Source: Candidatus Zambryskiibacteriota bacterium (GTDB lineage: Bacteria > Patescibacteriota > Minisyncoccia > Phycocordibacterales > DATDWN01). From it: DNA of 64,000 nt. Within the stretch, counting starts at the first letter, position 1. Every line of letters starts with the position of its first letter. The notes beneath the pieces were generated by a model. It worked only from the letters and a program-made list of their open reading frames with translations. It made no database searches and was not told where the DNA came from. The DNA lies in contig PPGI01000004.1 of NCBI GenBank assembly GCA_003173855.1, positions 176 to 64,175 on the forward strand, read 5' to 3'. Made by a program: the position numbers and the translations under genes. Of this stretch, positions 333 to 63,648 are shown piece by piece.

Positions 333-806
333 ATGAAAAGCCAGAATAGAGTGCTTTTATATAACATCCGCAGCACTCACAATGTTGGCTCTATTTTTCG
401 CACAGCTGATACGCTTGGAATCGAAAAACTATATTTGGTCGGCACAACACCAACACCAATTGATAGATTTGAAAGAGTGCGGCTTGATATTGCAAAAGTT
501 GCACTGGGTGCAGAGAAGGTCCTCGATTGGGAATATTTAAAAGAAGCAAAAACAACTATTTCAAAATTAAAAAAAGAAGGTTGGAATATTATCGCAATTG
601 AACAAAACAATAATTCAGTAGATTACAAAAAAATAAAAACAAAAAACAAAAATCTTTTTATAATTGGCGAAGAAGTAAATGGAATTACAAATGATATTTT
701 AAAATTAGCAAATCAGATAGGAGAAATTCCAATGCAAGGCAAAAAGGAATCACTCAATGTTTCTGTCGCTTTTGGAGTTGCTTTGTTTAGAATTCTTAAT
801 AAGTAA
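333..806 (+). CDS. SpoU/TrmH family RNA 2'-O-methyltransferase
   Basis: Motifs LFIIGEEVNGIT and IPMQGKKESLNVSVAFGVALF are typical of SPOUT methylases. Confidence 0.8.
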   Translation: MKSQNRVLLYNIRSTHNVGSIFRTADTLGIEKLYLVGTTPTPIDRFERVRLDIAKVALGAEKVLDWEYLKEAKTTISKLKKEGWNIIAIEQNNNSVDYKKIKTKNKNLFIIGEEVNGITNDILKLANQIGEIPMQGKKESLNVSVAFGVALFRILNK

Positions 807-1686
807 GAGTTGCTACAATTTTATTTTGGTTATCATAAAGTACAATATTTTCTCTCTGACTTTTCCATAATATTGCTCCACGTTTTAAATAAACCCGCCA
901 TTCGTGCTGGTCAAAATCAATATCGCCTTTGTGAGCATTAATACAGTATGGATAATTTAGTCGAGTCTCAATAAAATTTTTGCATTCATAAGTCAAAGTG
1001 TTGGGAAGATTAGCAATTGGCACTGTGCATCTTGGATAAATGTTCAAATAATCCATACAAGAATCATTTGGCAAAGTTTGCGGAATAACAGTCGTGGAGC
1101 CTTCGTCCTTTGGCTTTGGACAAACTTTATTTATATAAGGATAAAATTTTTGAAATTGAGTTAAATAACCAGAGCATTTGTTTGATTTAAAGCTTACTCC
1201 TAAAGGTGAGACACCAGTAATGACATACATTGTGTCAGAAGGAACTAAATAAATATCTTGCTCTGTATTTTGCGAACCTTGGAAAAATAAATATGTGCCT
1301 TGCGGAATTACAACAGTATTGCCTGTATTTGTACTAACAAGTTTCCATCCAGTTACAGGAATTGTGGTTGTTCCATAACTTGGAACCTGAATGGCAATGT
1401 ATTCCTGGTTTGGATCGGCTGAATGATTAACGTATGAAAGATTTATTTTTCCATAATAAATTGATTGAGTTTTTGAATTTTCGGCAACCTTGATTTGTCT
1501 CTCTAATGTTTTTACCTGTATTTGTGCAGAATTAATCTGGTTTTGAATATTTTGCTGCTTTTGCTCTGGAGTTTGATTTGGAGTAGAAATTAAAGCGTTA
1601 TGAGACTCACCTTTTGAGCCGCCAAAGAGAGCAATGGCAATAATGCCAATCAAAATGGCTATGCCTAACCAGTTATCATTATCCAT
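796..1686 (-). CDS. Hypothetical secreted/membrane-anchored Cys-rich protein
   Basis: N-terminal TM helix, Q/N-rich linker, beta-rich body with multiple Cys. No recognisable family. Confidence 0.45.
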   Translation of the reverse strand: MDNDNWLGIAILIGIIAIALFGGSKGESHNALISTPNQTPEQKQQNIQNQINSAQIQVKTLERQIKVAENSKTQSIYYGKINLSYVNHSADPNQEYIAIQVPSYGTTTIPVTGWKLVSTNTGNTVVIPQGTYLFFQGSQNTEQDIYLVPSDTMYVITGVSPLGVSFKSNKCSGYLTQFQKFYPYINKVCPKPKDEGSTTVIPQTLPNDSCMDYLNIYPRCTVPIANLPNTLTYECKNFIETRLNYPYCINAHKGDIDFDQHEWRVYLKRGAILWKSQRENIVLYDNQNKIVATLTY

Positions 1687-1705
1687 ACCATAATTTTACT
1701 ACAAA

Positions 1706-2605
1706 TTATTTCTGATGTATTGAACAGAAATGAGCACTTCGTCCGCCTATAATTTTGCGTATAATTTTTCCTTTACAACCAGGCTTTAGACAATTTTGTC
1801 CTGTTCTTCTATAAGCCTTGTGAGAGTTTTGAAAATTTCCTTTTTTGCCATAAATATTTCGATAATCTGACATAGAGTCTCCACCCATCTCCACACCTTT
1901 TTTCAGAACTTTTTTCATTGCGTCATACATTTTCTTAAACTCATCGTTTTCTATGTTTTTAACCAATCGTTCAGGATGGATTCCTACAGTCCAAAGAATT
2001 TCATCAGAATAAATATTGCCAATTCCAGCCAAAATTTCCTGATCTATAAGAACTGTTTTTATTTTTTTATTTGGACGTTTGCTCAATTGTTTTTTAAAAA
2101 CCTCAAGAGACAAGCCATTTAAAGGTTCTGGTCCAAGATTTTTGATATCACTAAGCTCATCACGTTCATCTGTTTTAAAAAGTATTACTTTGGCAAACTT
2201 TCTCATGTCAGAAAAAGCCAGCTGTTTCCCGTTTGAGAAGCCCACTACAAAATGAATAAATTGGTTAAATGGATCTGAAAGAAATTTCTCCTTACTTTTC
2301 CAGATTTTTCCATCGAAATTGTATTTTCCATACAATAAATGACCAGTCATTTTCATATGAATTAGAATAGTTTTGTTATGACTCGAATGAATTAGAATGT
2401 TTTTTCCTCGTCTTTCAACAACCTTAACTTTTTCTCCTATAATTTGTTTTTTGAAATTTTTAAAATATTTTTCATTTTTAATCGTGTCTAACCTTTTGTG
2501 TGTCGTACGCAAAAAATAATCTGTCCAGACATCTCGGATAGTTAAATTTGGCAGGACTTCGTTTAATCCATTAACAGTAGTCGTTACTTCCGGTAATTCA
2601 GGCAT
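1706..2605 (-). CDS. mutM: Formamidopyrimidine-DNA glycosylase (Fpg/MutM)
   Basis: N-terminal PELPEVE catalytic motif and C-terminal zinc finger CLKPGCKGKIIRKIIGGRSAHFCSIHQ. Confidence 0.85.
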   Translation of the reverse strand: MPELPEVTTTVNGLNEVLPNLTIRDVWTDYFLRTTHKRLDTIKNEKYFKNFKKQIIGEKVKVVERRGKNILIHSSHNKTILIHMKMTGHLLYGKYNFDGKIWKSKEKFLSDPFNQFIHFVVGFSNGKQLAFSDMRKFAKVILFKTDERDELSDIKNLGPEPLNGLSLEVFKKQLSKRPNKKIKTVLIDQEILAGIGNIYSDEILWTVGIHPERLVKNIENDEFKKMYDAMKKVLKKGVEMGGDSMSDYRNIYGKKGNFQNSHKAYRRTGQNCLKPGCKGKIIRKIIGGRSAHFCSIHQK

Positions 2606-3163
2606 CTATTTGTTTAAGTTCTTCAATGCGGATCTTACCTTTTCCTCAGTTGTATTTCCAGTTGTTTTTTTAAGCGCTTCACGGGCTTCGCGTTCGCCAA
2701 ACCCAAGTGCTTTAAGAGCTTCAATTGCATCAACGTCTCCAGTAATCATGCTTGTTTCACCAGTTAATCCAGCAAGCTTATCTTTTAATTCAACAACAAT
2801 TTTTTCGGCATTTTTCTTACCGATACCAGAAACTTTAGTTAAGTGTGTTGTGTCTCCAGAGGCAATGGCATGACGAAGATTAGGAAGTGTTGCAATAGAA
2901 AGAATGCTCATGGCTGATTTTGGCCCGATTCCTGAGACAGTGATTAAAAGTTCAAAAAAATCGAGCTCTTCTTTTGATCGAAATCCGTACAAATCTAGAG
3001 CATTTTCCCGAACAGCCAAGTATGTCCAAAACTCTGTAACAGAGCCTTTTTTTGACTCTAATCCAACAGTATTTGTATAAATTTTGTATCCTACTCCAGA
3101 AACATCCAGAGTAATCGATTTAAGGTCTTGATATATTACTGTGCCTTTGAGATGAGAAATCAT
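2606..3163 (-). CDS. ruvA: Holliday junction DNA helicase RuvA
   Basis: N-terminal MISHLKGTV...VSGVGYKIY OB domain, HhH motifs (GIGKKNAEKIV), C-terminal domain III. Confidence 0.9.
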   Translation of the reverse strand: MISHLKGTVIYQDLKSITLDVSGVGYKIYTNTVGLESKKGSVTEFWTYLAVRENALDLYGFRSKEELDFFELLITVSGIGPKSAMSILSIATLPNLRHAIASGDTTHLTKVSGIGKKNAEKIVVELKDKLAGLTGETSMITGDVDAIEALKALGFGEREAREALKKTTGNTTEEKVRSALKNLNK

Positions 3164-3234
3164 GGCTCTATAATACTAAAGAAATCGAATTTCCACTATT
3201 TACAAAACAGAACTTGTGGTATAGTATGCACCTC

Positions 3235-3498
3235 ATGCCTATTACAACATCAGCTAAAAAAGCTCTTCGAGGATCAATGCGAAAGCATGCTTTTAACGAG
3301 CATAAAAAAGAAGAAATCAATAAATCAATCAAGCAAATTAAAAGACTTATTACTCAAAAGAAAATAAAAGAAGCTCGAGAGTTCTTGCCTCAAATTCAGA
3401 AGATTTTAGATAAGTCAGCAAAAACTGGTTTAATTAAGAAAAATTCCGCAGCTCGTAAGAAATCAAGGATTGTCGCATTAGTTAAACGATCAGCCTAA
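3235..3498 (+). CDS. rpsT: 30S ribosomal protein S20
   Basis: MPITTSAKKALR... basic helical protein matching the S20 N-terminus. The ORF-track start at 3214 is an upstream in-frame Met. Confidence 0.8.
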   Translation: MPITTSAKKALRGSMRKHAFNEHKKEEINKSIKQIKRLITQKKIKEAREFLPQIQKILDKSAKTGLIKKNSAARKKSRIVALVKRSA

Positions 3499-3524
3499 CA
3501 GGATTCCGGCTACAAGCCGGTTTT

Positions 3525-3962
3525 TTGTTGTATAATTTATTAATGCCTAAATATAAAGGTACCGGCGATCTGCTTGATCCAAAAGTCTACCGCTATCTTG
3601 TTAACCTCTGGACATTTATTCTCTACATTTCTATTCTTGTTGATTTTGTAATGCAAAATCGAATTGATGGATTTCTCGGTCCGATTTGTGCTGTTTATGT
3701 TGCGCTTCTTGCAGTTTACACTGCCGAAAAAGAATTTGAGAGATGGCACGACTACAATATCGGTCGTCATCCTGGAGAAATTTATGTTTTTATCTGGACT
3801 GTTTTAGTTGTTTGTTTACTCGTTTTAGAAGTTATTTATCATGGCAGCTATCATGTTCCCACTGAAGTTTATACAACTTATATTGTTGTAGTCGGAATTT
3901 TAGCCATTACACGAAAATCTCGATCGAATTATTTGTCTCGAAGAAAAAGAAATAGAAATTAG
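3525..3962 (+). CDS. Hypothetical membrane protein
   Basis: Three to four predicted TM helices. No family recognised. Confidence 0.45.
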   Translation: MLYNLLMPKYKGTGDLLDPKVYRYLVNLWTFILYISILVDFVMQNRIDGFLGPICAVYVALLAVYTAEKEFERWHDYNIGRHPGEIYVFIWTVLVVCLLVLEVIYHGSYHVPTEVYTTYIVVVGILAITRKSRSNYLSRRKRNRN

Positions 3963-3973
3963 ACAAGCTTCTG

Positions 3974-4045
3974 TGCTCTCGCCAAGAATCGAACTTGGAT
4001 CGCAAGATCCGCAATCTTGCATTCTATCCATTAAACTACGAGAGC
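3974..4045 (-). tRNA. tRNA-Arg, anticodon read as GCG
   Basis: Reverse complement folds as a cloverleaf: acceptor GCTCTCG/CGAGAGC, T-arm CCAAG-TTCGATT-CTTGG, anticodon loop TTGCGGA, discriminator A. No encoded CCA. Confidence 0.6.
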
Positions 4046-4083
4046 AAGGATTTGATTAAATTAGCATAAAAATTAACTAATTT

Positions 4084-4195
4084 CCAAATTTGGATGAAAT
4101 CCGACGTGAGAAATTAAAAATGCGAGGAGCCTTAGTTAATGCTAAGGTGACGAGCATTTTTAATTTGGGAACGAGGAGTTCGCTAAATTTGGAAA
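4084..4195 (-). repeat. Intergenic repeat element, copy F (E/F subfamily), immediately after the stop of the 4196..4651 gene
   Basis: Reverse complement is about 95% identical to 23892..24010. Carries the hairpin CACCTTAG-CATTAAC-TAAGGCTC and terminal CCAAATTT(A/G)G palindromes. Confidence 0.75.
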
Positions 4196-4651
4196 TTAGA
4201 AACCCAGGTAGATAAGGAGTTTTTCGAAGAAAGGTTCGAGGTGCTCTTGTTCAGGAAGATGATTAATTAATATTTGGTGAATGGCTTCTGGATCAACTGA
4301 ATCAAGGAAAGCAACAATAAATGGCATAAAAATTTTTTTAGATTTAAAAATTATTCGAGGATGTCTGTCTCGAGTTTCAATCCAAAATGATTCCAGATTA
4401 TTATAAGGATAGCGAATGTTGTTAAGCGTAACTCCCATTGGTCCGACTTCAATATCAATTAATTTTGGTTTTATCGAGGAAAAAAGAGTTAAGGTAAAAG
4501 AAGCCACAATAATAAGTATTGCAAAAATTATGTTATTTAAAATAATCGAAATCAAAGCGATTGAAATTGTGACAATTGCCACAATCCAATACCAATCTGT
4601 GGTTTTTTCTTGATGCAAATATTCGTGAGCTTTCCAGGAAATTTTATCCAT
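4196..4651 (-). CDS. Hypothetical membrane protein
   Basis: Two N-terminal TM helices followed by a soluble domain. Overlaps the next gene start by 8 nt, so the two are an operon. Confidence 0.45.
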   Translation of the reverse strand: MDKISWKAHEYLHQEKTTDWYWIVAIVTISIALISIILNNIIFAILIIVASFTLTLFSSIKPKLIDIEVGPMGVTLNNIRYPYNNLESFWIETRDRHPRIIFKSKKIFMPFIVAFLDSVDPEAIHQILINHLPEQEHLEPFFEKLLIYLGF

Positions 4652-5072
4652 AGATTTCTTTTTTTGGCGGCATTGCAGCCCAAATAGTCAGAACACAGAC
4701 AAGAAGCGCCAAATTTTTTATAATATACTGACCTTCAAGCGTTGGTACAAATGGATGAACCCAAATTTCTTTGCCCATGACAAAAATCGGCAAAGTAGTT
4801 GTTATCATATGAAGACAAAACAAAATAACAGCAGTTTTTTCTAGCCCGGGAATAATAAAAAGAATTCCGACAAGCATTTCGAAGAGTCCGAAAAGAATAA
4901 TAAACAAATTAAAGCTTAAAGTCGGCATCATTGGCCCGATAGTTTTAGAAAACAAACTTGCGACCATTGGACTTGCTGGACTCATGCCTATTACTTTTAA
5001 TAATCCAAACCAAAAATAGATGACAAATAACGCAATGCGTGCAAACAAAACGCATGTTTGTCGAATATTCAT
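4644..5072 (-). CDS. DoxX-like multi-TM membrane protein
   Basis: Four TM helices in about 140 aa, as in the DoxX family. Confidence 0.4.
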   Translation of the reverse strand: MNIRQTCVLFARIALFVIYFWFGLLKVIGMSPASPMVASLFSKTIGPMMPTLSFNLFIILFGLFEMLVGILFIIPGLEKTAVILFCLHMITTTLPIFVMGKEIWVHPFVPTLEGQYIIKNLALLVCVLTIWAAMPPKKEIYG

Positions 5073-5140
5073 ACATTTATGTTAACATGTGAAAGTATTG
5101 TGTGCTACAATGCAATCGCTTTATTAGTATTTAAAAACCA

Positions 5141-5599
5141 ATGAATAAAGGAACATTAATCGGACTAATTATTTTAATTATAATTATTGTTGGAGGATAT
5201 TTTATATATAAGAATTCAAATTCAAGCACTCCTAACCCTGCTACAAATGGCGGAACAAGTGCACCGCTAGAGACAACCAATCCAAATGCAGCCTTACCTT
5301 TAATGGCTACAACAACACCTGCTGTCAAAGAGTTTACAGTTTCTGGAAAAAATTATTCTTTTACTCCAAACACTTTGACTGTTAAAAAGGGAGATCACGT
5401 AAAAATTACTTTTGTTGACACGCAAGGAATGCACAATTTCAAAATTGATGAATTTAATGCCTTGTCTAAAACACTTAAAGGAGGTTCGCAAGATGTAGTC
5501 GAGTTTACAGCAGATAAGACAGGACAGTTCCAATATTACTGTGCAGTTGGTCAGCATAGAGCAATGGGAATGTGGGGAACTCTAACTGTTACGGAGTAA
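5141..5599 (+). CDS. Membrane-anchored cupredoxin-like (plastocyanin/azurin fold) copper protein
   Basis: N-terminal TM, then a beta domain with His (GMHNF), Cys-x4-His-x4-Met (CAVGQHRAMGM) type-1 copper ligand spacing. Confidence 0.6.
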   Translation: MNKGTLIGLIILIIIIVGGYFIYKNSNSSTPNPATNGGTSAPLETTNPNAALPLMATTTPAVKEFTVSGKNYSFTPNTLTVKKGDHVKITFVDTQGMHNFKIDEFNALSKTLKGGSQDVVEFTADKTGQFQYYCAVGQHRAMGMWGTLTVTE

Positions 5600-5735
5600 A
5601 CTTTAAAAAATAGAATTCTTTTTCACTATAACTTTTTCATCACCGGAATAATTTTTTGCTAAAAATTTTCCTCGCGCTCATGATTCACTCACTCCGCGAT
5701 GCGCTGAAAAAGTTATAGTTCAACGAATTCTACAT

Positions 5736-6695
5736 TTACTTGTAGTTACTCAATATACTTTTCACAGTATTAATTGGAATAGCAAAGCCAATGCTGTTTG
5801 CGCCTTGATCTGTGGCAACATTGATTCCAACAATATTTCCATTGAGATCCAATAATGGTCCACCAGAATTTCCTGGATTAATTGCAGCATCTGTTTGAAT
5901 AACACCTCTTAATGTCTCAAGAGTTCCGCTTTCATCTGCAGCTGTTATAGAACGATCAAGTCCAGAAATAATTCCGACTGAAACCGAGTTGTTGTATTCA
6001 CCCAGTGCGTTTCCGATAGCTGCAACTGTTTGACCAAGTTTTAGATTTGATGAATCACCGAGTGAGGCAATTGAATTATAATTTCCATTAATTTTAATTA
6101 TAGCTATGTCGTTTTTTGGATCCGTATAAACAACCTCGGCGATTTTTTCGCTTCCATCTGAGAGAAGGACTTTGTATTGAGCATTTGGATCAAAGATCAC
6201 ATGTTTATTTGTCACAATGTAACCGTCATGTGTGAACAATATTCCAGTTCCAGCACCAACTTTTTGTAAAGTTTGTCCTACTTGTTTGTAAACAGGAATG
6301 CGAATATTGCCAAATCTTGGATCATCACCAAACGGGTTTTCATAACTTATTTGATATTGCGGTGCATATTGAGATATGACAATGGAAACAACAGCTGGTG
6401 CTTCTTTTGCCACTGCCGATGTTATTAATTGATCTTGGGATTTTGCTGCGACTGTTTGTGTTTGAACTGGATTAGAGGATTTGTTCGCTGCTGCAGAAAT
6501 TTGAGCTACAGCATTTTTAGTCGCTGTGGCAATTGACGACTGTGTACCCTCGAGACTTGCAATTTGGGATTGGAGAGTTGCCACTTTAGAGTTCAGCAAA
6601 TGATTTTGGTAAAGGGTTAAAAAACCAAAGATTCCTACTCCAATCATTAGCATTGCTACAACGACAGCAATTGTTTGTAATGCATTTTTTCTCAT
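5736..6695 (-). CDS. Trypsin-like serine protease (HtrA/DegP family, no PDZ domain)
   Basis: N-terminal TM. GNSGGPLLDLNGNIVGINVA catalytic serine motif, His (TNKHVI) and Asp (DIAIIKI) triad elements. Confidence 0.8.
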   Translation of the reverse strand: MRKNALQTIAVVVAMLMIGVGIFGFLTLYQNHLLNSKVATLQSQIASLEGTQSSIATATKNAVAQISAAANKSSNPVQTQTVAAKSQDQLITSAVAKEAPAVVSIVISQYAPQYQISYENPFGDDPRFGNIRIPVYKQVGQTLQKVGAGTGILFTHDGYIVTNKHVIFDPNAQYKVLLSDGSEKIAEVVYTDPKNDIAIIKINGNYNSIASLGDSSNLKLGQTVAAIGNALGEYNNSVSVGIISGLDRSITAADESGTLETLRGVIQTDAAINPGNSGGPLLDLNGNIVGINVATDQGANSIGFAIPINTVKSILSNYK

Positions 6696-6760
6696 GGCAG
6701 TAACTACTACATCAGTATGAGAAAAAATATTTCACACGTCTCTACATTTTTATGAAGAAA

Positions 6761-9115
6761 TTAACGTAAGAGCTCTTGAACAAAATAAGGGAAGCTCGCG
6801 GTTACTAAAATTCCTCTTAGTCGTAGGGGATTATCTTGGTAAACTCCTTTATAAGTTGTTCGATAAGTTAAGTAACCTGCATCTTTTGCTAAATCAATTA
6901 AGTCGGAATTTGAATACCCATAAGGCGAAGCAAAATGATTTACAGGTTTTCCTAAAATCGCTTCCAAAGTTTTCTTGCTATTTGTCATTTCAATATTTAC
7001 TTGGTCCAATTGCAGATTTTTGAAAAATGGATGGCTTACACTATGACTTTCAAAAATCATTCCGGCGTTTTCCATCTCTTCAATATTACTTGTCGAGAGA
7101 AAATGATTTTTATTTATTGAATTTGTAAAAATATAAAATGTGGCCTGCATGCCGTATTTTTTTAAGAGTGGAAATGCATATTTGTACTGATTTTGCCAAC
7201 CATCATCAAAAGTTAGAACCACTGGTTTTTGTCCGGGTGTGGTTGTGCCATTTTTTAAATCATTAGCTACATCATCAAGACTAATTGCTGTAAATCCATT
7301 ATTTTTTAAATATTTCAGCTGACGCTCAAATAATTGAGGAGAAATTTCATATGCCTTAAGTTCTGCTGAATCATTTTGATTAATAGGCCGCACACTATGA
7401 TAAATAAGTATTGGAATTTTCAATGCTCCGGGCAACGGTGTTTCTTCCGGTTCATTTTGAAAAGATTTTTCAATACTTTCATCATCTATAATCTGAATCG
7501 GGGCTTCTTTTTTTGTAACTTTTGTAACACTAAAAATTTTAATTTTGCTAAGCAACCCTGCAAATGCATCTCCTAGATTTTTAAATGCAAGATAAATGGT
7601 TGCAAACAAATTTGAACTAGAGGCCACTTTTTTGTTTACCATAATAGTTTGGGTTTGAACTAAAATTGAACTAGTTGCAGTTTTTAAATACAAAGCAGAG
7701 ACATAAGTTCCTGCGGAACTATAATTATGGTTTAAACTAAAATTTTTAGATTTACAATAATTATTCGATACAGAAATTGTAGTGGTGCTTTTATCGCCAT
7801 ATCCAAAATTGTAAATTGAAGCTAAACAAGATTTGTTGTTGTTCACTGAACCATTAAATGAAACAGAAAGAGGCGCTGTTCCGGCAACTGGGTTAGCAGT
7901 ATATGATCCAAAAGCTGCACCAGGAGGGCCTGTAGGCGTCGTATTTGGAGTCGCTACAAAAGTAGGGTTTAATACAATGGTAGTTGAACACTGCATCGGT
8001 CCAAGTGGCCCAGATAATTTAATAATATAAGTATGCGTGCTTGAGGCAACAAAAGTTTTACTTCCACTCAAATCTGCTCCTGAACCATCATCAAAAACCA
8101 CTCGATTTGCTCCTGTTGTGTACCATGAAAGTGTTACTTCTGTAGGTGAGTCAATTATATTTGTATCAGCTTCAAGATCACAAGATAAAACGGGTGTTGC
8201 GTATCGTTCAATATTCAGTCCATAAAGAAGTTCCGGAAGGGCACTGCCATTAATCCAGCCAGCATCTAATAAGTCGAGAGAATTATTTGACCAGATAAAA
8301 TTGCTGGTGCTTTTAAGATCATAAAAAGTTTTACCAAAATCAATTATTTTATCGCCCAGCAAAGTTGTTTTTACAGTATAAGAGTCATCTACCGGAGTAA
8401 TTAATCCATCAAGATCAAAATAATAGTTTGAACCTGCAGGAATTTCTATCGGAGGATCAAATAATGTCGTTGCAATTGATGATGTTGCATCAAATTCTGT
8501 CGTTCCGATTGATCCGTCAGTTTCTCCAATAATAGGAGATGAATAAAGTAGATCCGTAAATCCATATAGAGTAAGAGTGTCTATTGTAGCGGCGTCCAAC
8601 CTAAGATTAAAAGTAAGTTTGGCAATTTTTACATTTTGTGTTGCATGAATTTTAAATCGCATTAAATGTCCATCAATAACATCGTACGGCGCTAAAGTTT
8701 GATCTAATGCTAGTGTTGGTGCTGTAGCTCCAATAAAAAGGCTGCCTCTATCTAAAATTATTCCGCCCGAAGAAAGTGTGACAAAGTATTCTCCAACAGA
8801 AATTGGTGGGTAAATTGTTGTTGACCATCTCTCTTCGTTAACGTCTAAATTTTTTGCTACAAGTATTTCGCCTGTGCTCGATGCAGAGATTTCTAGATGC
8901 AGAGGAGCAATTAAATTACTGGCTGTTCCAGTCAAAGTTGGGTTCGATTTAAGAGAAGTTATTATTTTATAATCGAGAGCAGCTTTCGGAGGCGGTATTT
9001 TGGTCGCAAATAGAGAATTTACCTGAATTAGAAGAAAAAAAAGTCCAAAAAAGATATACACATACGATTTGCCTAGACTCTTAAGTTTCAATGGTATAAT
9101 CTGTTGAGACTTCAT
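6761..9115 (-). CDS. Large secreted protein with C-terminal polysaccharide deacetylase (NodB/CE4) domain
   Basis: Signal peptide after Met at 9115 (the ORF track extends to 9361, probably spuriously). Beta-rich Thr/Ser repeats. C-terminus has LTFDDGW...HSVSHP NodB motifs. Confidence 0.7.
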   Translation of the reverse strand: MKSQQIIPLKLKSLGKSYVYIFFGLFFLLIQVNSLFATKIPPPKAALDYKIITSLKSNPTLTGTASNLIAPLHLEISASSTGEILVAKNLDVNEERWSTTIYPPISVGEYFVTLSSGGIILDRGSLFIGATAPTLALDQTLAPYDVIDGHLMRFKIHATQNVKIAKLTFNLRLDAATIDTLTLYGFTDLLYSSPIIGETDGSIGTTEFDATSSIATTLFDPPIEIPAGSNYYFDLDGLITPVDDSYTVKTTLLGDKIIDFGKTFYDLKSTSNFIWSNNSLDLLDAGWINGSALPELLYGLNIERYATPVLSCDLEADTNIIDSPTEVTLSWYTTGANRVVFDDGSGADLSGSKTFVASSTHTYIIKLSGPLGPMQCSTTIVLNPTFVATPNTTPTGPPGAAFGSYTANPVAGTAPLSVSFNGSVNNNKSCLASIYNFGYGDKSTTTISVSNNYCKSKNFSLNHNYSSAGTYVSALYLKTATSSILVQTQTIMVNKKVASSSNLFATIYLAFKNLGDAFAGLLSKIKIFSVTKVTKKEAPIQIIDDESIEKSFQNEPEETPLPGALKIPILIYHSVRPINQNDSAELKAYEISPQLFERQLKYLKNNGFTAISLDDVANDLKNGTTTPGQKPVVLTFDDGWQNQYKYAFPLLKKYGMQATFYIFTNSINKNHFLSTSNIEEMENAGMIFESHSVSHPFFKNLQLDQVNIEMTNSKKTLEAILGKPVNHFASPYGYSNSDLIDLAKDAGYLTYRTTYKGVYQDNPLRLRGILVTASFPYFVQELLR

Positions 9116-9137
9116 TTTTATTAATAATATAACGTAT

Positions 9138-9671
9138 ATGGCAAAAACAAAATGGATTTGGGTGTTGGTAATTATAGTAGTTGTTATTGGTTTATGGTGG
9201 TTTGGTGTATTTAATATGTTCGGAAACCAAGCAGCTGTTTTTACCAGCCAAGATTCATCACTTTCTCCTACAGTACTTAGAGCTGAACTTGCAAATATAT
9301 ATGCAAAACTTACTGTGGCAACAAAACCACTGGGCACAGCTCCAACTCGTGAACAAATCAAAACTGCAGCAGATGCAATTAATGTTGCAAACTCGCTGAT
9401 TCTGGCATTTGCCTCAAAACTTCAGGCAGTGGCGATTAATGCAAAAACAACTGGAGCAAAAATACCAGACAGCAAAGCACTCGCTGATTTGTTAGTTCAA
9501 GTATCAAATTCCGGTTCACTTGCAGGAACTGCTGTTGGGAATGCATTAGGTTCAAGTTCTACACCTGCACAAGTCCGAATTTCAGCTTCACAAATAATTA
9601 GTGCTCAAGCAATGCTAAATGTTGCTCGTATTGATCTCCAAAAAATCGCAAACGGATTAGGAATTAAGTAA
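9138..9671 (+). CDS. Hypothetical membrane-anchored Ala-rich protein
   Basis: N-terminal TM helix, low-complexity A/S/T-rich body. Confidence 0.45.
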   Translation: MAKTKWIWVLVIIVVVIGLWWFGVFNMFGNQAAVFTSQDSSLSPTVLRAELANIYAKLTVATKPLGTAPTREQIKTAADAINVANSLILAFASKLQAVAINAKTTGAKIPDSKALADLLVQVSNSGSLAGTAVGNALGSSSTPAQVRISASQIISAQAMLNVARIDLQKIANGLGIK

Positions 9672-9705
9672 TTGCATTCTCTCAAAATCCTGTTAAGATA
9701 GCACC

Positions 9706-21813: not shown

Positions 21814-22674
21814 ATGTTTAATCAATTAAATGATGTCCAGCGAGGAAGATTATTCAACGCTGTTCTAACAGTTGTAATTTTGCTTGGTGTTTATTTAGCA
21901 GCAGCTTCGGTCAATGCATTTAAGTCGAACGAATATATTGGTCGGGGAGAATATCCAGCAAATTCTATTACAGTTTCTGGTACCGGTGACGCTTATGCCG
22001 TACCGGACACAAGCACTATTTCTTTTTCTGTAACCGAAGAAGCAAAAACTGCAAGTGCAGCTCAAGATGCGTTAAATAAAAAAGCTAATGCGATTATTGC
22101 CGCTGTCAAAGATTTGGGAATTGATTCAAAAGATATTCAAACAAATTATTATAATTCTTATCCAAAGTACGAATACTCATCTGCTGTTTGTCCCGAGCCA
22201 CAACCAATGATTTACAGCGGATCATCTGTATCTGGCCAAGCAATAAAAGGTACAGCACCATACTATTGTCCACCAGGAAAACAAACACTTACTGGTTATG
22301 AAGCAACGGAGACAGTGACTATTAAAGTTAGAAAAACTCAAGACGCCGGAGCAGTGTTATCAAAAGTAGGCGAATTGGGTGCAACAAATGTTAGTGGTCC
22401 AAATTTTTCAATCGATGACATGGATTCTATCCAAGCCGAGGCTCGTGACAAAGCAATTGCCAACGCCAAAGAAAAAGCAAACGTTTTAGCAAAATCTCTT
22501 GGAGTAAAACTTGGCAAGGTTGTTAATTTCCAAGAACCTGGACAGCCAATTTACTACGCTATGGATAAGGCAATGGGGGCAGGGGTTTCCTCACCAGCTC
22601 CGACTATGCCGGATTTCGAGACGGGACAGAATAAAGTAACCTCTAACGTCACAATTACCTATGAAGTAGACTAG
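21814..22674 (+). CDS. SIMPL-domain (DUF541) periplasmic protein
   Basis: N-terminal TM, ITVSGTGDAYAVPDTSTISFSV..., architecture typical of SIMPL/26 kDa periplasmic immunogenic protein. Confidence 0.6.
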   Translation: MFNQLNDVQRGRLFNAVLTVVILLGVYLAAASVNAFKSNEYIGRGEYPANSITVSGTGDAYAVPDTSTISFSVTEEAKTASAAQDALNKKANAIIAAVKDLGIDSKDIQTNYYNSYPKYEYSSAVCPEPQPMIYSGSSVSGQAIKGTAPYYCPPGKQTLTGYEATETVTIKVRKTQDAGAVLSKVGELGATNVSGPNFSIDDMDSIQAEARDKAIANAKEKANVLAKSLGVKLGKVVNFQEPGQPIYYAMDKAMGAGVSSPAPTMPDFETGQNKVTSNVTITYEVD

Positions 22675-22822
22675 CTCAGGTCTTTTTGTCCGATTTCTGC
22701 GTTACTCGCTCCGGTTCTCCCTCACCTTACTCTTGTAAGGCTCAGTTCGCTCCTCACTCGCGCCTTGAACTCGAACAAAAATCCTCTGAGCATCTCACCT
22801 CGGATTTCATTCAAATTTGAAA
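22672..22822 (+). repeat. Intergenic repeat element copy A (A/B/C-type 5' module plus shared 3' module)
   Basis: Starts at the TAG stop. TAGCTCAGGTCTTTTTGTCCGATTTCTGCG..., hairpin CACCTTAC-TCTT-GTAAGGCTC, CGCCTTGAACTCGAA, ends CCTCGGATTTCATTCAAATTTGA. Confidence 0.8.
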
Positions 22823-22869
22823 GTTTGGAATACTTGACAATATAACAAGTACATGCTATCTTTAAACGA

Positions 22870-23090
22870 GGTGATTTAGCAAAAATCCTGTCGGAATACT
22901 CTTACGGGGTACAGAGTTAATTACAGAATCCGACTGCTAAGTTAGCGACCAGACTCCCCACAGGGAACTCAACTATCTGCTATTGAAGAGATGGCGGGGG
23001 AAACTGTTAAGAAAGTCTGGTGCGATACCACCCGTGGCCCACTCTGATTAGCCAATAAGGCGAAAGGTTTATAAGAGGGCCACTTTTTTA
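22870..23090 (+). ncRNA. Candidate structured ncRNA of unknown class, with its own promoter and terminator
   Basis: TTGACA (22834-22839), 17 nt spacer, TATCTT. About 215 nt with several hairpins, ending GTGGCCC...GGGCCAC plus a T-run at 23077-23089. No ORF. Confidence 0.3.
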
Positions 23091-23161
23091 TTTGACTAAA
23101 TTTTTAAAAGGAGTAGTATTCATTTTGACCCCGAGAGGGGATTTTTAATAACACAAAATCT

Positions 23162-23345: not shown

Positions 23346-23891
23346 ATGTCAAAATCGCAATTAAACACAGGTCGCAATTGGTACGTCATCCACACTTATG
23401 CTGGATATGAAAACGCAGTGATGCGAAATCTAAAACAGCGTATCGAGTCTCTTGGCATGGAAGACAAGATTTTTAACGTCATTGTTCCAACAGAAAAGAA
23501 AATTAAAATCAAAGGAGGAAAACGTGTAGAAGAAGAGGAAAAAATTTATCCAGGATACATTTTAGTGGATATGATTGTGACTGAAGATTCATGGTTTGTT
23601 GTCAGAAATACTCCTCGAGTGACTGGTTTTGTTGGTTCTGGAGTCTATCCTGTACCTATTGATCCAAAGGAAATCGAAGTTCTATTTAGTCGAATGAATG
23701 CCGGAGACGTTAAACATAAGATTGATTTACAGTTAAATGATGCTGTTAAAATTGTCGATGGTCCATTCAAGGATTTGGAAGGCAAAGTTAACGAAGTTGA
23801 TGAGGAGAGAGGCAAAGTTAAAGTCCTTGTCGCTATGTTCGGTAGGGAGACACCAGTCGAACTAGATTTTCTTCAAGTTAAGAAAATCTAG
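23346..23891 (+). CDS. nusG: Transcription termination/antitermination factor NusG
   Basis: NWYVIHTYAGYEN NGN domain. C-terminal KOW (KIVDGPFKDLEGKV). Confidence 0.9.
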   Translation: MSKSQLNTGRNWYVIHTYAGYENAVMRNLKQRIESLGMEDKIFNVIVPTEKKIKIKGGKRVEEEEKIYPGYILVDMIVTEDSWFVVRNTPRVTGFVGSGVYPVPIDPKEIEVLFSRMNAGDVKHKIDLQLNDAVKIVDGPFKDLEGKVNEVDEERGKVKVLVAMFGRETPVELDFLQVKKI

Positions 23892-24010
23892 TTCTAAACT
23901 TTCAAATTTGGCGAACTCCTCGCTCCCAAATTAAAAATGCTCGTCACCTTAGCATTAACTAAGGCTTCTCGCATTTTTAATTTCTCACGTCGGATTTCAT
24001 CCAAATTTGG
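23892..24010 (+). repeat. Intergenic repeat element copy E (E/F subfamily)
   Basis: TTCAAATTTGGCGAACTCCTCGCTCCC...CACCTTAGCATTAACTAAGGCTT...CGGATTTCATCCAAATTTGG. Starts 1 nt after the nusG TAG. Confidence 0.8.
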
Positions 24011-24072
24011 AAGTTTCTAATCAGTGTTTGACTTAAAAGTTTTTAGTAATAGGATGAAATTGGAGGTGGATT

Positions 24073-34689: not shown

Positions 34690-36594
34690 ATGACTGATTT
34701 TGATAAAAGTCGAATTGAAAAGCTGAAACAAACCTTGTATTCGAGGAACGAAAACATTGTTCCGAAGGAAAAACGCACTCCTGTGGAGGGTCACAATGTT
34801 GATGCACCTACAAATTGGGGTGAACCAAAAACATTTGAGTTTAATCCAGAGACAATGGCTCGTAAGAATAATTCTTTTTTCAATAAATTTCTACTCTGGT
34901 CTGTAATTTTTTTTGTTATTGCAGTGGGTGCAGCTATTTTTAGTTTTATGGGTGGTTTTAATATGATTTCCTCAAACAACTTAGATATTAAGGTTGTTTC
35001 TCCAAGTTCGGTTTCTTCTGGTGAAGAATTGGATATGGGTTTAACTATTTTAAATGCGAATCGTACTGATCTTACAGATGTGAGTCTTGAAATTATTTAT
35101 CCAGAGGGGAGTCAATCTGTGGGGGACAACTCAAAACCGCTGACTCGTGAGACAGAAGATCTTGGTACCATAAAAGCTGGAGGTAGTGCAAATTATACTC
35201 TCCGAGCATTGCTTTTTGGTGAAAAAGATTCGATAAAAACATTTGATTTGCGTTTGGAATATAAAGTTAAAAATTCAAACGCAGTATTTTCAAAGGAAAA
35301 ATTCTACGATGTTTCTATTGGCTCTTCGCCGTTACTTTTAAATGTTACTTATCCTCAAGAAATAAATTCTGGCCAGGATGTTCAGCTTTCTGTTGATGTC
35401 ACGTCCAATTCACCCGTTGTTCTATCAAACACGCTGTTAAAAGTTGAGTATCCATACGGATTTACTTACAAATCATCAAATATCAGACCGTTGCGAAATA
35501 ATTCCGTGTGGAATATCGGTGATTTAAAAAATGGTGACAAAAAAACTTTGGTTATTACCGGAACTTTGGTCGGCCAAGATCAAGAAGACAGATCGTTTAG
35601 AGTTTCTGTCGGCACACCATCATCTCCAGGGGACAGTGATTTCAGTACAGCCTTATCAGAATTTTTGGCCACTGTTGGTATCAGAAAATCCTTCTTTAAT
35701 CTTGAACTTGTTCCGGCAAATGGCTCAAGTGTTACGGCTCCAGGCCAATCTGCAGGCATAGCTATCAAGTGGCAGAACACCCTTCCTGATAAAATAGAAT
35801 CGAGCCAAATTCAAGCAACAATTTTTGGCAATGGATTTGATCACAATCAAGTTTCTGTTGGAAACAGTGGATTTTATCGTTCAGTCGATAACACTGTTTT
35901 GTGGGACAAATCTCAGGACAAGGATTTAATCGAAATCTTGCCAGGTGATGCTGGATCGGTAAGCTTAACTCCCAGTGCACTAAACGAAGCTTCAATTCGG
36001 CAAGTTCGCAATCCGCACATCGATGTTCATGTTGTGATGTCTGGCTCAAGATCCGGAACGCAATCTGGTCCTGTTCAATCAACAGCAGATATCAGCATTA
36101 AAGTAGCATCGACACTGACTTTGGCAGCAAAATCATTTAGAAATAATGGAACATTTTCTAACACTGGACCAATTCCTCCGCGAGCTGACCAAGAAACGAC
36201 CTATACAGTAAATTGGCTTCTAACTAACACCACAAACGATATTTCCAATACAACGGTTTCTGCAACTTTGCCACCGGGAGTTTCTTGGAAAGGGCAAACT
36301 AGTCCATCGGGAGAAAAAATTAATTATAATCCAGATTCTCACGTAGTTACTTGGAATGCTTCAAATGTCTCGGCTGGAACAGGATTTAATTATTCACCAC
36401 GGCAAGTTTCTTTCCAAGTTGGCATTACTCCAAGCGTTAATCAAATAAATACAGTTCCGCCGCTAACATCAAGCATTCAAGTTTCGGGTACAGATAGTTG
36501 GACAAATACGCCAGTAGCCCTTACTTTACCAGCGGTTACTACTCAATATAGTGATCCGGGATCGGGAGCTGCTCAAGCAACAGTTGTAAAGTAG
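34690..36594 (+). CDS. Large type-II membrane / surface protein, beta-rich, unknown function
   Basis: About 70-aa cytoplasmic N-terminus, one TM, then about 540 aa S/T/N-rich predicted beta domains. Confidence 0.45.
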   Translation: MTDFDKSRIEKLKQTLYSRNENIVPKEKRTPVEGHNVDAPTNWGEPKTFEFNPETMARKNNSFFNKFLLWSVIFFVIAVGAAIFSFMGGFNMISSNNLDIKVVSPSSVSSGEELDMGLTILNANRTDLTDVSLEIIYPEGSQSVGDNSKPLTRETEDLGTIKAGGSANYTLRALLFGEKDSIKTFDLRLEYKVKNSNAVFSKEKFYDVSIGSSPLLLNVTYPQEINSGQDVQLSVDVTSNSPVVLSNTLLKVEYPYGFTYKSSNIRPLRNNSVWNIGDLKNGDKKTLVITGTLVGQDQEDRSFRVSVGTPSSPGDSDFSTALSEFLATVGIRKSFFNLELVPANGSSVTAPGQSAGIAIKWQNTLPDKIESSQIQATIFGNGFDHNQVSVGNSGFYRSVDNTVLWDKSQDKDLIEILPGDAGSVSLTPSALNEASIRQVRNPHIDVHVVMSGSRSGTQSGPVQSTADISIKVASTLTLAAKSFRNNGTFSNTGPIPPRADQETTYTVNWLLTNTTNDISNTTVSATLPPGVSWKGQTSPSGEKINYNPDSHVVTWNASNVSAGTGFNYSPRQVSFQVGITPSVNQINTVPPLTSSIQVSGTDSWTNTPVALTLPAVTTQYSDPGSGAAQATVVK

Positions 36595-36714
36595 CTCAAG
36601 TCTTTTTGTCCGATTTCTGCGTTGAAACCTCAAAAATGATCGTCACCTTACTATTAGTAAGGCTCCTCACATTTTCTCATTTCGCCTTGAACTCAATCAA
36701 AAATTTTTCGAGCA
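36592..36714 (+). repeat. Intergenic repeat element copy B
   Basis: TAGCTCAAGTCTTTTTGTCCGATTTCTGCG...CACCTTAC-TATTA-GTAAGGCTC...CGCCTTGAACTCAATCAAAAAT. Begins with the stop TAG. Confidence 0.8.
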
Positions 36715-36750
36715 ATTGAAACTATTGGTACTTTACGTTAACATACAAAT

Positions 36751-42712: not shown

Positions 42713-43129
42713 ATTAGACTTACTTATCCACATTTCATACATTACAATTTTTTCTAAAAAAGACTGATTTTGTTAGAAATGATCAGGATTGATCAAACAC
42801 TTTTTAAGTCAAATTTTGAATTTTAGCCATCATAAGGGTTTTGTATTTCTATACTAGAAACCTATATAAACCTTTATAAACATTCATAAAAAAAGCAGGT
42901 TTTATTAACCTTTAGTTCAATTATAATTTGGCTTGATCTTTCTCGGATATTAATTTAATTTTCTAAAAATTTTTTAAAAATTAGCATTTCTTAGAAATTT
43001 CAAATTTTAATAAAATCAACGAAATTGGAAAAATCATTTTCTAAGGCCAAAACCTCGTTTTATGGCTAATAATAAGTGATAAAATATTATTATTGCTACG
43101 CTCGCTTTGTAGCAAAGTACCTTATTCTG

Positions 43130-47849: not shown

Positions 47850-48050
47850 ATGAAACAAGATTTTTTTAACGAAAACAATATTAAATATATCGACTACAAA
47901 GATGTCGAAGTTTTGAAGAAATTTCTAAATCCTCATGCACGAATTATTTCTCGAAAGAGATCTGGAATTACTGCAAAGAATCAGAGGAATCTAGCAGTAG
48001 CCATCAAACGCGCTCGCTTTATGGGATTGTTACCTTTTGTGTCCAGATAG
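47850..48050 (+). CDS. rpsR: 30S ribosomal protein S18
   Basis: IDYKDVEVLKKFL...ARIISRKRSGITAKNQRNLAVAIKRARFMGLLPF. Confidence 0.9.
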   Translation: MKQDFFNENNIKYIDYKDVEVLKKFLNPHARIISRKRSGITAKNQRNLAVAIKRARFMGLLPFVSR

Positions 48051-48166
48051 CTCGGGTCTTTTTGTCCGATTTCTTCGTTACTCGCTCCGGTGCTCCTTCA
48101 CCTTATACTTATAAGGCTCAGTTCGCTCCTCACTCGCACCTTGAACTCGAATAAAAATCCTCCGAG
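48048..48166 (+). repeat. Intergenic repeat element copy C
   Basis: TAGCTCGGGTCTTTTTGTCCGATTTCTTCG... hairpin CACCTTAT-ACTT-ATAAGGCTC (compensatory change) ...CACCTTGAACTCGAATAAAAATCC. Starts at the rpsR stop TAG. Confidence 0.8.
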
Positions 48167-48199
48167 ATTCTTTGTTTTTATTAGTTATAATAAATATAT

Positions 48200-60748: not shown

Positions 60749-60769
60749 TTTGACACAAAAGCCTAATTT

Positions 60770-60965
60770 CTGTACTCTAGAGCTCATAAGGTCAAAGACA
60801 GGTGGCAACCATAAGTCCGCCCGAGACAACCTCTAGACCTTATTAGGTCGAGTAGCTAAACGAGGGTTTTAGCTTTGTGTAAAGTTCGCGAAGAAGGATA
60901 AAAATAATTGGAGGCTTATCGAGTATAAGACGAGAATTATTTTTTGAACTTCGACAAAGAAATTT
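60770..60965 (+). promoter_or_regulatory. Putative ribosomal protein L10 leader (autoregulatory 5' UTR)
   Basis: About 200 nt non-coding upstream of rplJ with mutually exclusive inverted repeats (TCTAGAG/CTCTAGA and ATAAGGTC/GACCTTAT). Confidence 0.35.
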
Positions 60966-60989
60966 ACCAAAGATAAAAGCCGTAATATT

Positions 60990-62797: not shown

Positions 62798-63484
62798 ATG
62801 ATTTTAAATACATGGGGCAGTGTTTTGACCACTTCATTCCAGAATCTTTGGGTAGGAGTGATCACATTCATTCCGAATTTAATTGTAGCTATCGTCATTT
62901 TGCTCATTGGCTGGGCTATTGGAGCAATTGTTCAAAAGGGAATTGCTCACTTTATGAAAATGATCCAGTTTGATGAGGCATTGCGAAAAGCTGGATTTGA
63001 GGATTTAGTAAGGCGTTCGGGATTGAATCTTAATTCAGGAAAATTCCTTGGTGCGCTTGTTAAATATTTCATTATCGTCGTATTTTTGATTGCAAGTTTT
63101 GATGTTCTTGGATTAAATCAAGTAACTCTATTTCTACAGCAAGTAGTCATGGGTTATCTTCCACAACTTATCATTGCTGTATTGATTCTACTTGTTGGTG
63201 GTGTTGTTGGTGATGTTCTATCAAGAATTGTTATTGCTTCAGCTCGAACAGCTGGATTAGGCTCCGCATCATTTCTTGGTGTTGTAACTCGATGGGCCGT
63301 TTGGATTTTCGTTCTTTTGGTTGCTCTAGATAAAATGGGAATCACAGGTCCAATAGTGCAGACACTCTTTACGGGAGTTGTTGTGGCGATCTCACTTGCA
63401 CTAGGTCTTGCGTTCGGACTTGGTGGACAGGATGCTGCGAGCCGCACCATCGAACGAATTAGACACGAAGTTTCAGAGAAGTAA
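62798..63484 (+). CDS. Membrane protein with two 'conserved TM helix' repeats (MscS-associated N-terminal domain type)
   Basis: Internal duplication LIVAIVILLIGWAIGAIVQKGIAHF / LIIAVLILLVGGVVGDVLSRIVIA. Confidence 0.45.
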   Translation: MILNTWGSVLTTSFQNLWVGVITFIPNLIVAIVILLIGWAIGAIVQKGIAHFMKMIQFDEALRKAGFEDLVRRSGLNLNSGKFLGALVKYFIIVVFLIASFDVLGLNQVTLFLQQVVMGYLPQLIIAVLILLVGGVVGDVLSRIVIASARTAGLGSASFLGVVTRWAVWIFVLLVALDKMGITGPIVQTLFTGVVVAISLALGLAFGLGGQDAASRTIERIRHEVSEK

Positions 63485-63487
63485 ATT

Positions 63488-63648
63488 TCCCAAATTAGCG
63501 AACTTTAGCTGGAACTGCAAAAATTAGGGCTCACCTTACAACTCGTAAGGCTCGCGCTATTTTTCTTGTTCGCCTTGAATTTCATCTAATTTGTAAAATT
63601 TATTATATATTGCTAGAGAAATTGACCTCGGATTTCATCCAAATTTAC
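63488..63648 (+). repeat. Intergenic repeat element copy D (mosaic of E/F-type 5' end and A-type core)
   Basis: CCCAAATTAGCGAAC..., hairpin CACCTTAC-AACTC-GTAAGGCTC, CGCCTTGAATTTCAT, ending GACCTCGGATTTCATCCAAATTTA. Begins 4 nt after the stop TAA. Confidence 0.75.

Follow-up and report, generated by a model that had tools for sequence, protein, structure and literature searches.

Contig PPGI01000004.1 of a Candidatus Zambryskiibacteriota bacterium (assembly GCA_003173855.1) raises the question of why one short intergenic sequence should recur beside the stop codons of unrelated genes. An original prediction, made from a 64,000-nucleotide stretch of this contig (positions 176 to 64,175; the whole stretch is called the window below), listed six copies, A to F, viewed them as mosaics of short modules, and proposed either a terminator-type or REP/BIME-like element of the 3' untranslated region (UTR) or a mobile element linked to stop codons. 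We find that the copies belong to a previously undescribed family of hairpin repeats, each about 125 bases long, in which the fold is maintained by selection through compensatory changes and a TA-linked junction joins the element to the boundaries of open reading frames (ORFs). With about even confidence, we read this family as a new, non-autonomous, palindromic one resembling miniature inverted-repeat transposable elements (MITEs), of the ERIC/Correia/RUP kind, co-transcribed in the UTRs of Zambryskibacteria-like bacteria of the candidate phyla radiation (CPR).

All six predicted copies were recovered (Table 1). The window has six occurrences of the motif CACCTTA-N4-9-TAAGGCT, where 100 dinucleotide-preserving shuffles predict 0.00. 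Copies D and E, which sit at unrelated loci, share 95% identity across 119 nt; for A and C the figure is 90% across 124 nt. A covariance model of 127 positions, trained on copies from relatives and used to scan the window, adds a seventh copy, G (66 bits), with the variant motif CGTCTTA...TAAGCCTC. The window total is seven copies in 64 kb, at a spacing of about 10 kb. As predicted, the TAG that opens copies A, B and C is the stop codon of the SIMPL gene, of the gene for a 634-aa DUF11 protein, and of rpsR, respectively, while E and F directly follow a TAA and D begins 3 nt after a TAG. The further claim that every copy shares the orientation of its upstream gene is correct for the six listed copies, but fails as a strict rule because copy G is reversed, upstream of rplJ.

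Each copy is predicted to fold into one imperfect hairpin, about 125 nt long, whose apex is CACCTTA-loop-TAAGGCT; copy length is about 125-130 nt and the GC fraction 0.29-0.51. The supposed mosaic of modules represents several subfamilies of one hairpin, plus remnants. What had been called the 5' module and the 3' module are the two arms of one outer stem, CGCCTTGAAYT and CSTCGGATTTCAT are alternative forms of one 3'-arm position, and the extra 3' modules past copies A and F are remnants of older copies. In 84 aligned copies, the 45-pair structure is 89.2% paired, compared with 76% in shuffles and 32-50% in slid controls, and compensatory cells number 496 where 145 are expected. The proposal that covariation preserves the hairpin is borne out by 34 of the 45 pairs, changed on both sides, and compensatory change in the apex stem by its closing pair (C:G in 43 copies, U:A in 27, G:C in 13). 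At the orthologous nusG site alone, 16 of 42 pairs covary among 11 genomes.

Conservation is uneven along the hairpin. Variability peaks in the outermost stem, which covaries freely. At the stem base, the main subfamily has TARAAC...GTTYTA and another has TAGCTC..., and some members of the family have different apexes, such as GTAC...GTAC. Sequence is conserved, and does not covary, in an A4:U4 block, in the CGTT of the 5' arm, in the C-C-T-G-A spacing of the 3' arm and in asymmetric bulges; several internal-loop sequences are conserved as well. Offsets relative to the upstream ORF differ among copies, so no consistent reading frame runs through the element. Separately, the apex sequence TCACCTTA resembles the 3' end of 16S rRNA, and mimicry of a Shine-Dalgarno or anti-Shine-Dalgarno sequence was considered.

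A pattern scan for relatives, based on the apex motif and using one genome per species, found at least 100 stretches. Among the matches listed, 99 of 100 originate from Patescibacteria, in at least 40 metagenome-assembled genomes (MAGs), and the remaining one is a chance archaeal match; the labels among these matches are Zambryskibacteria, Paceibacterota, Kaiserbacteria, Minisyncoccia, and third-party annotation records labelled "Saccharibacteria". The NusG of the window is itself 90-93% identical to NusG of Zambryskibacteria-type MAGs. About 122 copies were found by the covariance model in loci of relatives (given L numbers below), 25 of them chosen independently of the apex pattern, and about 129 copies from 41 genomes form the sample for placement statistics. 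The family is patchy, with a copy in only 3 of 80 metagenome loci (377 kb) chosen because their NusG is 75-91% identical to that of the window. A scan of viral contigs gave no match to the family. A scan of the window at the Rfam gathering thresholds reported tRNAs only and no family at the elements, and at E<=1 two loci with three copies between them showed no meaningful match at the elements. The literature on CPR/Patescibacteria repeats, as searched, held nothing relevant to the hairpin family, in agreement with the original statement that no described family is of this kind.

Placement was assessed from the stops of open frames of at least 60 codons near each end of the 129 copies. A co-directional stop lies at the 5' end, at offsets from -7 to +2 with a mode of 0, in 86 of 129 copies (67%), whereas the mirror test, for convergent ORFs at the 3' end, shows no peak, about 12 falling in that offset range. 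Adjacency to a stop is found for 15 of the 25 copies not picked by the apex pattern, and the tally rises by at least five copies when nested inserts are allowed for. The bias in position and orientation thus extends far past the window; the remaining copies include ten that are reversed and lie before start codons. The stops at the junction are TAA in 54 cases, TAG in 31 and TGA in one, against 381, 168 and 78 for 627 other long ORFs, so that TGA is depleted (binomial P about 1.4e-4). No conserved target sequence was seen upstream of the junction stop, where the base profile equals background. The stem starts straight after the stop codon in 61 of the 86 copies. Mirror agreement is 85-90% in the stem and 41%, 67% and 70% for the T, A and R of the stop; the symmetry of the palindrome therefore begins within the stop codon. 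On the 3' flank, checked for target duplication, the expected T is present in 67% and the expected A in 41% of copies. The 86 upstream genes, in which 84 Pfam families are represented, are core and often highly expressed, including NusG (9), EF-G (5), BacA (4) and SecY (3) as well as EF-Tu, GAPDH, aldolase, MreB, DnaB and S18.

A second mode of placement involves start codons. In ten copies the element is reversed, and its same end and the start codon of an opposite-strand gene are 1-27 nt apart; these genes are rplJ (window, L036, L048), tuf (L055, L023, L045), one for a TypA/LepA-like GTPase, nusA, and others. Of the seven reversed copies that come within 7 nt of the start, six read TATG there, so TA is again found at the junction. 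In L063, a forward copy past a stop and a reversed copy before the next ATG stand back to back, and orientation therefore tracks the adjoining ORF rather than a chromosome-wide direction. A conserved stretch was also noted upstream of the reversed rplJ copies (window 60750-60857, L036 ~4363-4400, L048 ~4558-4600), where the window has ccttattaggtcgagtagct and both L036 and L048 have ccttaggtcgcacattatcaa; this stretch has no Rfam match and could be a divergent L10 leader.

Orthologous gene ends differ in what they carry. At the end of the SIMPL gene, the window has a TAGCTC-type copy plus a remnant, L015 has a main-type copy, L085 has only a 29-nt remnant of the 5' arm, and five other genomes have nothing; in L050 the SIMPL stop is only 2 nt from the -35 box of the next promoter. 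The end of the MscS-like gene carries a 27-nt mini-hairpin in L048 and a full copy with two tandem 3'-arm remnants in L036, and the DUF11 gene end is empty in L074. The nusG site of copy D is occupied in 10 other genomes as well, and empty nusG sites show a nusG-rplK gap of 15-25 nt. Because the C-termini of orthologues at filled and empty sites coincide, the ancestral stop position is unchanged. These are comparisons between species, and the differences may reflect loss rather than gain. For 52 of the 86 stop-adjacent copies, at least one other genome has a copy at that gene end too. Orthologous sites often hold elements of different subfamilies; similarity is 0.75 there and 0.69 at unrelated sites, and the nearest relative is at the orthologous site in only 12 of the 52 cases. 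Concerted evolution within a genome found no support, since the nearest relatives of a copy, under thin sampling per genome, are usually in other genomes.

Nested inserts and tandem partial copies (3'-arm remnants) are also present. A foreign repeat of about 75 nt, CTTACAGGnnC...GTACACCTTTCRCATTT...CTCAAGGTCTTGCGAAG-hairpin-TTCTCAC, is nested within three elements (L003 ~1578-1652, L046 ~820-895, L091 ~6400-6480), at differing positions, in the same orientation and without target duplication. A second insert type, ACAAGAGTACTTCTTGTTTTATAAAYAAAACAAAGTCG, occurs in elements of L004 and L073. The only other public contig with exactly the NusG of the window, L101 (Logan SRR490130_11936311, 1401 nt), ends 118 nt past the nusG stop, inside copy D, which suggests that these repeats break short-read assemblies; the exact rpsR product of the window gave no match on record.

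Sites resembling terminators, with a GC-rich stem and a T-run, lie 1-46 nt downstream of 12 of 128 elements (9.4%) and of 54 of 587 element-free gene ends (9.2%). Because downstream terminators occur at the background rate, the element lies within the transcription unit and does not replace them. Many copies are inside operons, for example between rpsR and the next gene or at fusA in the str region. Inspection by eye showed no convincing -35/-10 pair on either strand of the element. The two strands differ consistently in predicted stability. With RNA parameters, the antisense strand is the more stable in 129 of 129 copies (mean -43.8 vs -31.9 kcal/mol), and with DNA parameters in 127 of 129. 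It has 260 G.U cells against 59 A.C, or 104 against 59 when two fixed wobble pairs are removed; its mismatches are mostly purine-purine and its internal loops purine-rich, and the sense strand is 24% C and 14% G. Since forward copies, with their sense strand in the mRNA, and reversed copies alike show the asymmetry, it looks like a property of the family and not a product of local RNA selection.

Table 1. Hairpin copies and remnants in the window (positions as in the window).
Feature	Position	Strand	Description
Copy E	4073..4200	-	Full hairpin; 126 bits by covariance model
Copy A	22672..22796	+	TAGCTCRGGTC... outer-stem subfamily; TAG 22672-22674 is the SIMPL gene stop
3'-arm remnant (ACCTCGGATTTCATTCAAATT...)	22797..22822	+	Older main-type copy, immediately 3' of copy A
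Copy D	23894..24021	+	Full hairpin, 3 nt past nusG stop TAG (23889-23891); 123 bits
Copy B	36592..36718	+	TAG 36592-36594 ends the gene for the 634-aa DUF11 protein
Copy C	48048..48172	+	TAG 48048-48050 is the rpsR (S18) stop
Copy G	60858..60984	-	Reversed; stop-codon end 5 nt before rplJ ATG (60990), i.e. in the rplJ 5' UTR
Copy F	63481..63606	+	TAA 63482-63484 is the MscS-like gene stop, at the stem base; 88 bits
3'-arm remnant (GACCTCGGATTTCATCCAAATTT)	63616..63648	+	Downstream of copy F

Pfam labels the genes next to these copies as SIMPL, DUF11 protein, S18, NusG and MscS-like. The TAA stop (4198-4196) of the 151-aa gene at 4196-4651 is the first stem triplet of copy E, paired with the TTA of its 3' end, and a tRNA-Arg lies about 30 nt downstream. 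Copy D brings its own terminal TAA (23895-23897) as a second in-frame stop for nusG, and copy B is followed by a gene for a class II aminoacyl-tRNA synthetase. Directly past copy A, at 22836-23100, a good sigma-70-like promoter (TTGACA-17-TATCTT) precedes about 230 nt of non-coding sequence that closes with terminator-like GGGCCAC-TTTTTT, and a small secE-like ORF and nusG come next; this region, which has no Rfam match at E<=1 and which is a shorter promoter-plus-terminator unit in relatives, may be an unannotated small RNA. A weak covariance-model match (14.9 bits, E 0.47) at 5604-5742, between the convergent ORFs 5141-5599 (+) and 5736-6695 (-), contains TCACTCACTCCGCG, similar to the inner arms of copies A and C, and may be a decayed relative or noise. 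Gene orientation flips at about 9400-9700. Long ORFs read on the minus strand to the left (796-9361) and on the plus strand to the right (9706 to about 48.6 kb); E is a minus-strand copy on the left side of this switch, and A-D and F are plus-strand copies on its right side. The switch may mark a replication origin region.

Membership in one family, a common covarying fold, the placement statistics, polymorphic sites, and a location upstream of terminators are the observations from which our favoured reading, a MITE-like family, starts. Bacterial MITEs are shorter than 200 bp, have terminal inverted repeats (TIRs) and TA termini, and yield RNA that forms a stem-loop from 5' to 3' end (Delihas 2008, PMC2229807). 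The hairpin family agrees in size, composition and copy number, and in terminal inverted repeats that fold the whole element into a hairpin, its 45 pairs being 89% paired. Filled and empty sites, compared between species, are found at the SIMPL, nusG, DUF11 and MscS gene ends. As to TA termini, 85 of 86 stops on the 5' side are TAA or TAG; the 3' side has the lower figures given above. An autonomous insertion sequence (IS) with the same ends is the MITE feature that was not found, in an arm search of 0.8 Mb and a transposase search of about 1.2 Mb.

We infer, in this reading, that the family is mobile. A TA connects the 5' end of the element to an ORF boundary. In about 70% of copies, the upstream TAA or TAG serves as the first stem triplet, which places the element in the 3' UTR in the sense orientation; in about 8%, a reversed element abuts a start codon, usually within TATG. 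Insertion, replacement or conversion, followed by decay, would account for the turnover of the family. Because the element is co-transcribed with the upstream gene, a long hairpin ends or interrupts the mRNA, and the terminating ribosome would have to melt its base. The most likely effect on RNA, by analogy with ERIC, REP and Correia elements, would be to protect or process the upstream message at its 3' end. The placement rule is most likely explained by a TA-linked junction together with purifying selection, which would be very strong where a genome has next to no neutral intergenic DNA. Insertions would survive only in the orientation that gives an in-frame TAR at once, the TAR-bearing end keeping the upstream ORF intact. 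Both alternatives of the original prediction, a REP/BIME-like 3'-UTR element and a stop-codon-linked mobile element, stay alive in general form; the features that define REP and RAYT systems were not found.

Several points weigh against the MITE-like reading. A tblastn search of about 1.2 Mb of loci, with approximate IS608 TnpA and E. coli RAYT queries, found no partner transposase with matching ends. The single IS200-like transposase in this sequence, in L006, has unrelated GC-rich hairpins as its ends, and a search for solo arms in 0.8 Mb found no pair of arms kilobases apart, only remnants and nested inserts. On the assumption that the other TAR sites between genes are neutral, TA or TAR targeting with intragenic loss would by our estimate give about 10% stop occupancy and a 1:1 orientation, and so could not alone give the observed 67% and 9:1. 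A TA target-site duplication is unsupported, since the 3' A is at 41% only and the base after a 3' TA is a purine about half the time. The 52 of 86 shared sites fit conserved function as well as hot-spot insertion. Finally, the antisense strand, absent from the mRNA for most copies, is predicted to fold better by a mean of 11.9 kcal/mol, which would be unexpected if the sense RNA were selected and complicates a simple 3'-UTR RNA account. On the L006 element itself, we note that the gene for its IS200/IS605-like Y1 transposase (143 aa; 3730-4340), flanked by CCCCGCCC/GGGCGGGG GC-rich hairpins, lies within a small gene, between duplicated stretches of about 36 nt, and that its sequence is unrelated to the repeat family.

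A different interpretation is possible but clearly less probable than the first, and in it the hairpin is a vertically inherited, cis-acting 3'-UTR RNA structure coupled to translation termination and not primarily mobile. The stop codon would be sequestered in the stem base, a terminating ribosome would open the hairpin, and the structure would control mRNA decay or processing, ribosome release, or the next cistron, with copies homogenised by gene conversion. Such a device would suit the gene ends shared between genomes, the nusG site filled in 11 genomes with its covarying pairs, the core and often highly expressed genes upstream, the conserved reversed copies before rplJ and tuf, the stop codon exactly at the stem base, and the conserved internal loops. 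It accords poorly with the absence of the family from 77 of 80 close-relative loci with the same genes, with orthologous sites that are often empty or hold decayed remnants, and with elements at orthologous sites that are scarcely more similar than those elsewhere. Nested and tandem partial copies, and an mRNA strand that is the weaker-folding one, also argue against it. No greater probability attaches to a bolder proposal, that the hairpin seeks ORF boundaries, whether as a mobile element propagated through its bottom strand, folded and single-stranded, and delivered to the TA of TAA or TAG stops or of TATG starts, or as a termination-coupled RNA switch that holds the stop codon. Were this true, reduced genomes would actively maintain a dedicated structure to mark their gene ends, rather than carrying passive junk there.

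We regard as slightly less likely again that the element is a site for recombination or transposition of single-stranded DNA, modelled on integron attC sites, IS200/IS605 ends and REPINs, in which the folded bottom (antisense) strand would be recognised by a putative HUH or tyrosine enzyme. The asymmetry would then identify the recognised strand, and indeed the antisense strand is the more stable in every copy by RNA parameters, whichever strand is transcribed. Conserved asymmetric bulges and mismatches, two fixed G.T/G.U positions, orientation-specific placement without clear target duplication, the nested 75-nt insert that enters elements without duplication, and the AAC...GTT at the stem base of the majority subfamily are all consistent with this. 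Yet the only IS200-like TnpA in about 1.2 Mb has unrelated ends, and approximate queries gave no RAYT-like match; there are no cassette arrays, the upstream genes being core housekeeping genes of many families. The stem base is TARAAC/GTTYTA and not RYYYAAC/GTTRRRY, and is absent from the TAGCTC subfamily, there is no conserved GTAG or CGTC tag, and the back-to-back copies of L063 show that orientation is not simply the direction of replication.

The two remaining explanations are very improbable. Small antisense RNA genes, transcribed from the best-folding strand and acting on overlapping mRNA 3' ends, would explain the much better antisense fold, in which G.U pairs and internal loops rich in purines are features common in structured RNA, but there is no conserved outside sequence that could be a promoter, the flank required for a start often holds a terminator or the promoter of the next gene, no Rfam family matches, and the roughly 10% of inverted copies would put the supposed small RNA in an mRNA 5' UTR. 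A family of intrinsic (Rho-independent) terminators spread by duplication, the terminator-type element of the original prediction, would suit a long hairpin placed directly after stop codons with a 3' arm often ending in GTTTT(A), but is rejected because the stem by the T-run is AT-rich, the T-run itself falls within the stem and is no longer than about 4 nt, GC-rich terminators of the canonical kind are found downstream at the background rate, many copies are inside operons, and a terminator would be lethal in the reversed copies that precede the start codons of essential genes.

Few known genomes are as compact as those of CPR/Patescibacteria, which are usually called repeat-poor, so that a structured repeat at roughly one gene end in ten, common to dozens of species, is of some consequence. 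Its placement, with the stop in the stem base, a fixed orientation, and TAA or TAG rather than TGA, is stricter than in any described bacterial repeat family. If the rule reflects insertion machinery, a mobile element would effectively recognise the ends of ORFs; if it reflects selection, the repeats would be a readout of how scarce neutral DNA is and of the effect of a 3'-UTR hairpin on its message. In practical terms, such repeats appear to break short-read assemblies, and they could serve as lineage markers. A different kind of repetition in the window concerns coding sequence: tandem 186-nt (62-aa) repeats with 74-82% identity, at 44969-45640 within the 1247-aa ORF 43076-46819, suggest a repetitive surface-type protein.

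Among known systems, REPs are 20-40 nt long and have a GTAG or CGTC tag (PMC3733652). The hairpin family resembles REP/BIME sequences in being extragenic 3'-UTR palindromes that form mosaics with partial copies and for which protection of mRNA 3' ends has been proposed. A REP or REPIN-RAYT identity is rejected because the hairpin measures about 125 nt, the alignments show no conserved tag, and an approximate RAYT query matched nothing in 1.2 Mb. REPs of E. coli within about 15 nt of a stop codon reportedly affect translation through ribosome stalling and transfer-messenger RNA. Integron attC sites are imperfect palindromes right after, or overlapping, the stop of the upstream ORF and in its orientation; structure is conserved over sequence, the bottom strand is the functional one, and AAC...GTT stands at the stem base. 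The likeness in stop-adjacent placement, orientation, folded bottom strand and AAC...GTT stem base is plain, but the conserved apex hairpin and internal loops seen here are lacking in attC, and an attC identity is rejected because there are no RYYYAAC/GTTRRRY boxes, no cassette arrays and no integrase nearby, and the upstream genes are core housekeeping genes. With IS200/IS605 ends and their palindrome-associated derivatives (PATEs) the family may have in common a strand- and orientation-specific insertion by a short target without duplication, and recognition of a folded single strand. IS200/IS605 ends form two separate subterminal hairpins without long 5'-3' pairing, unlike the family here, and the sole IS200-like element found, in L006, has unrelated ends, so an IS200 end is rejected as well.

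The closest likeness, judged by described features, is to ERIC/IRU and Correia/NEMIS elements, in a CPR host and with sequence similarity neither sought nor seen. Those, too, are non-coding, A+T-rich, 100-160 nt long and dispersed in many copies. They have long terminal inverted repeats that make the whole element one 5'-3' stem-loop, with TA at the termini, and they are co-transcribed intergenic DNA beside genes, with filled and empty sites. ERIC has an orientation-dependent, ribosome-induced effect on mRNA (Delihas 2008, PMC2229807), a terminating ribosome that opens the hairpin affecting the upstream message, which parallels a stop codon at the stem base here. In contrast to ERIC and Correia elements, the outermost stem is variable rather than a conserved transposase-binding TIR, there is no demonstrable 3' TA duplication, and the non-mRNA strand is the better folded in every copy. 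The placement differs as well, in that the upstream stop forms the first stem triplet in about 70% of copies and the orientation relative to the upstream gene is about 9:1, with a second mode at start codons.

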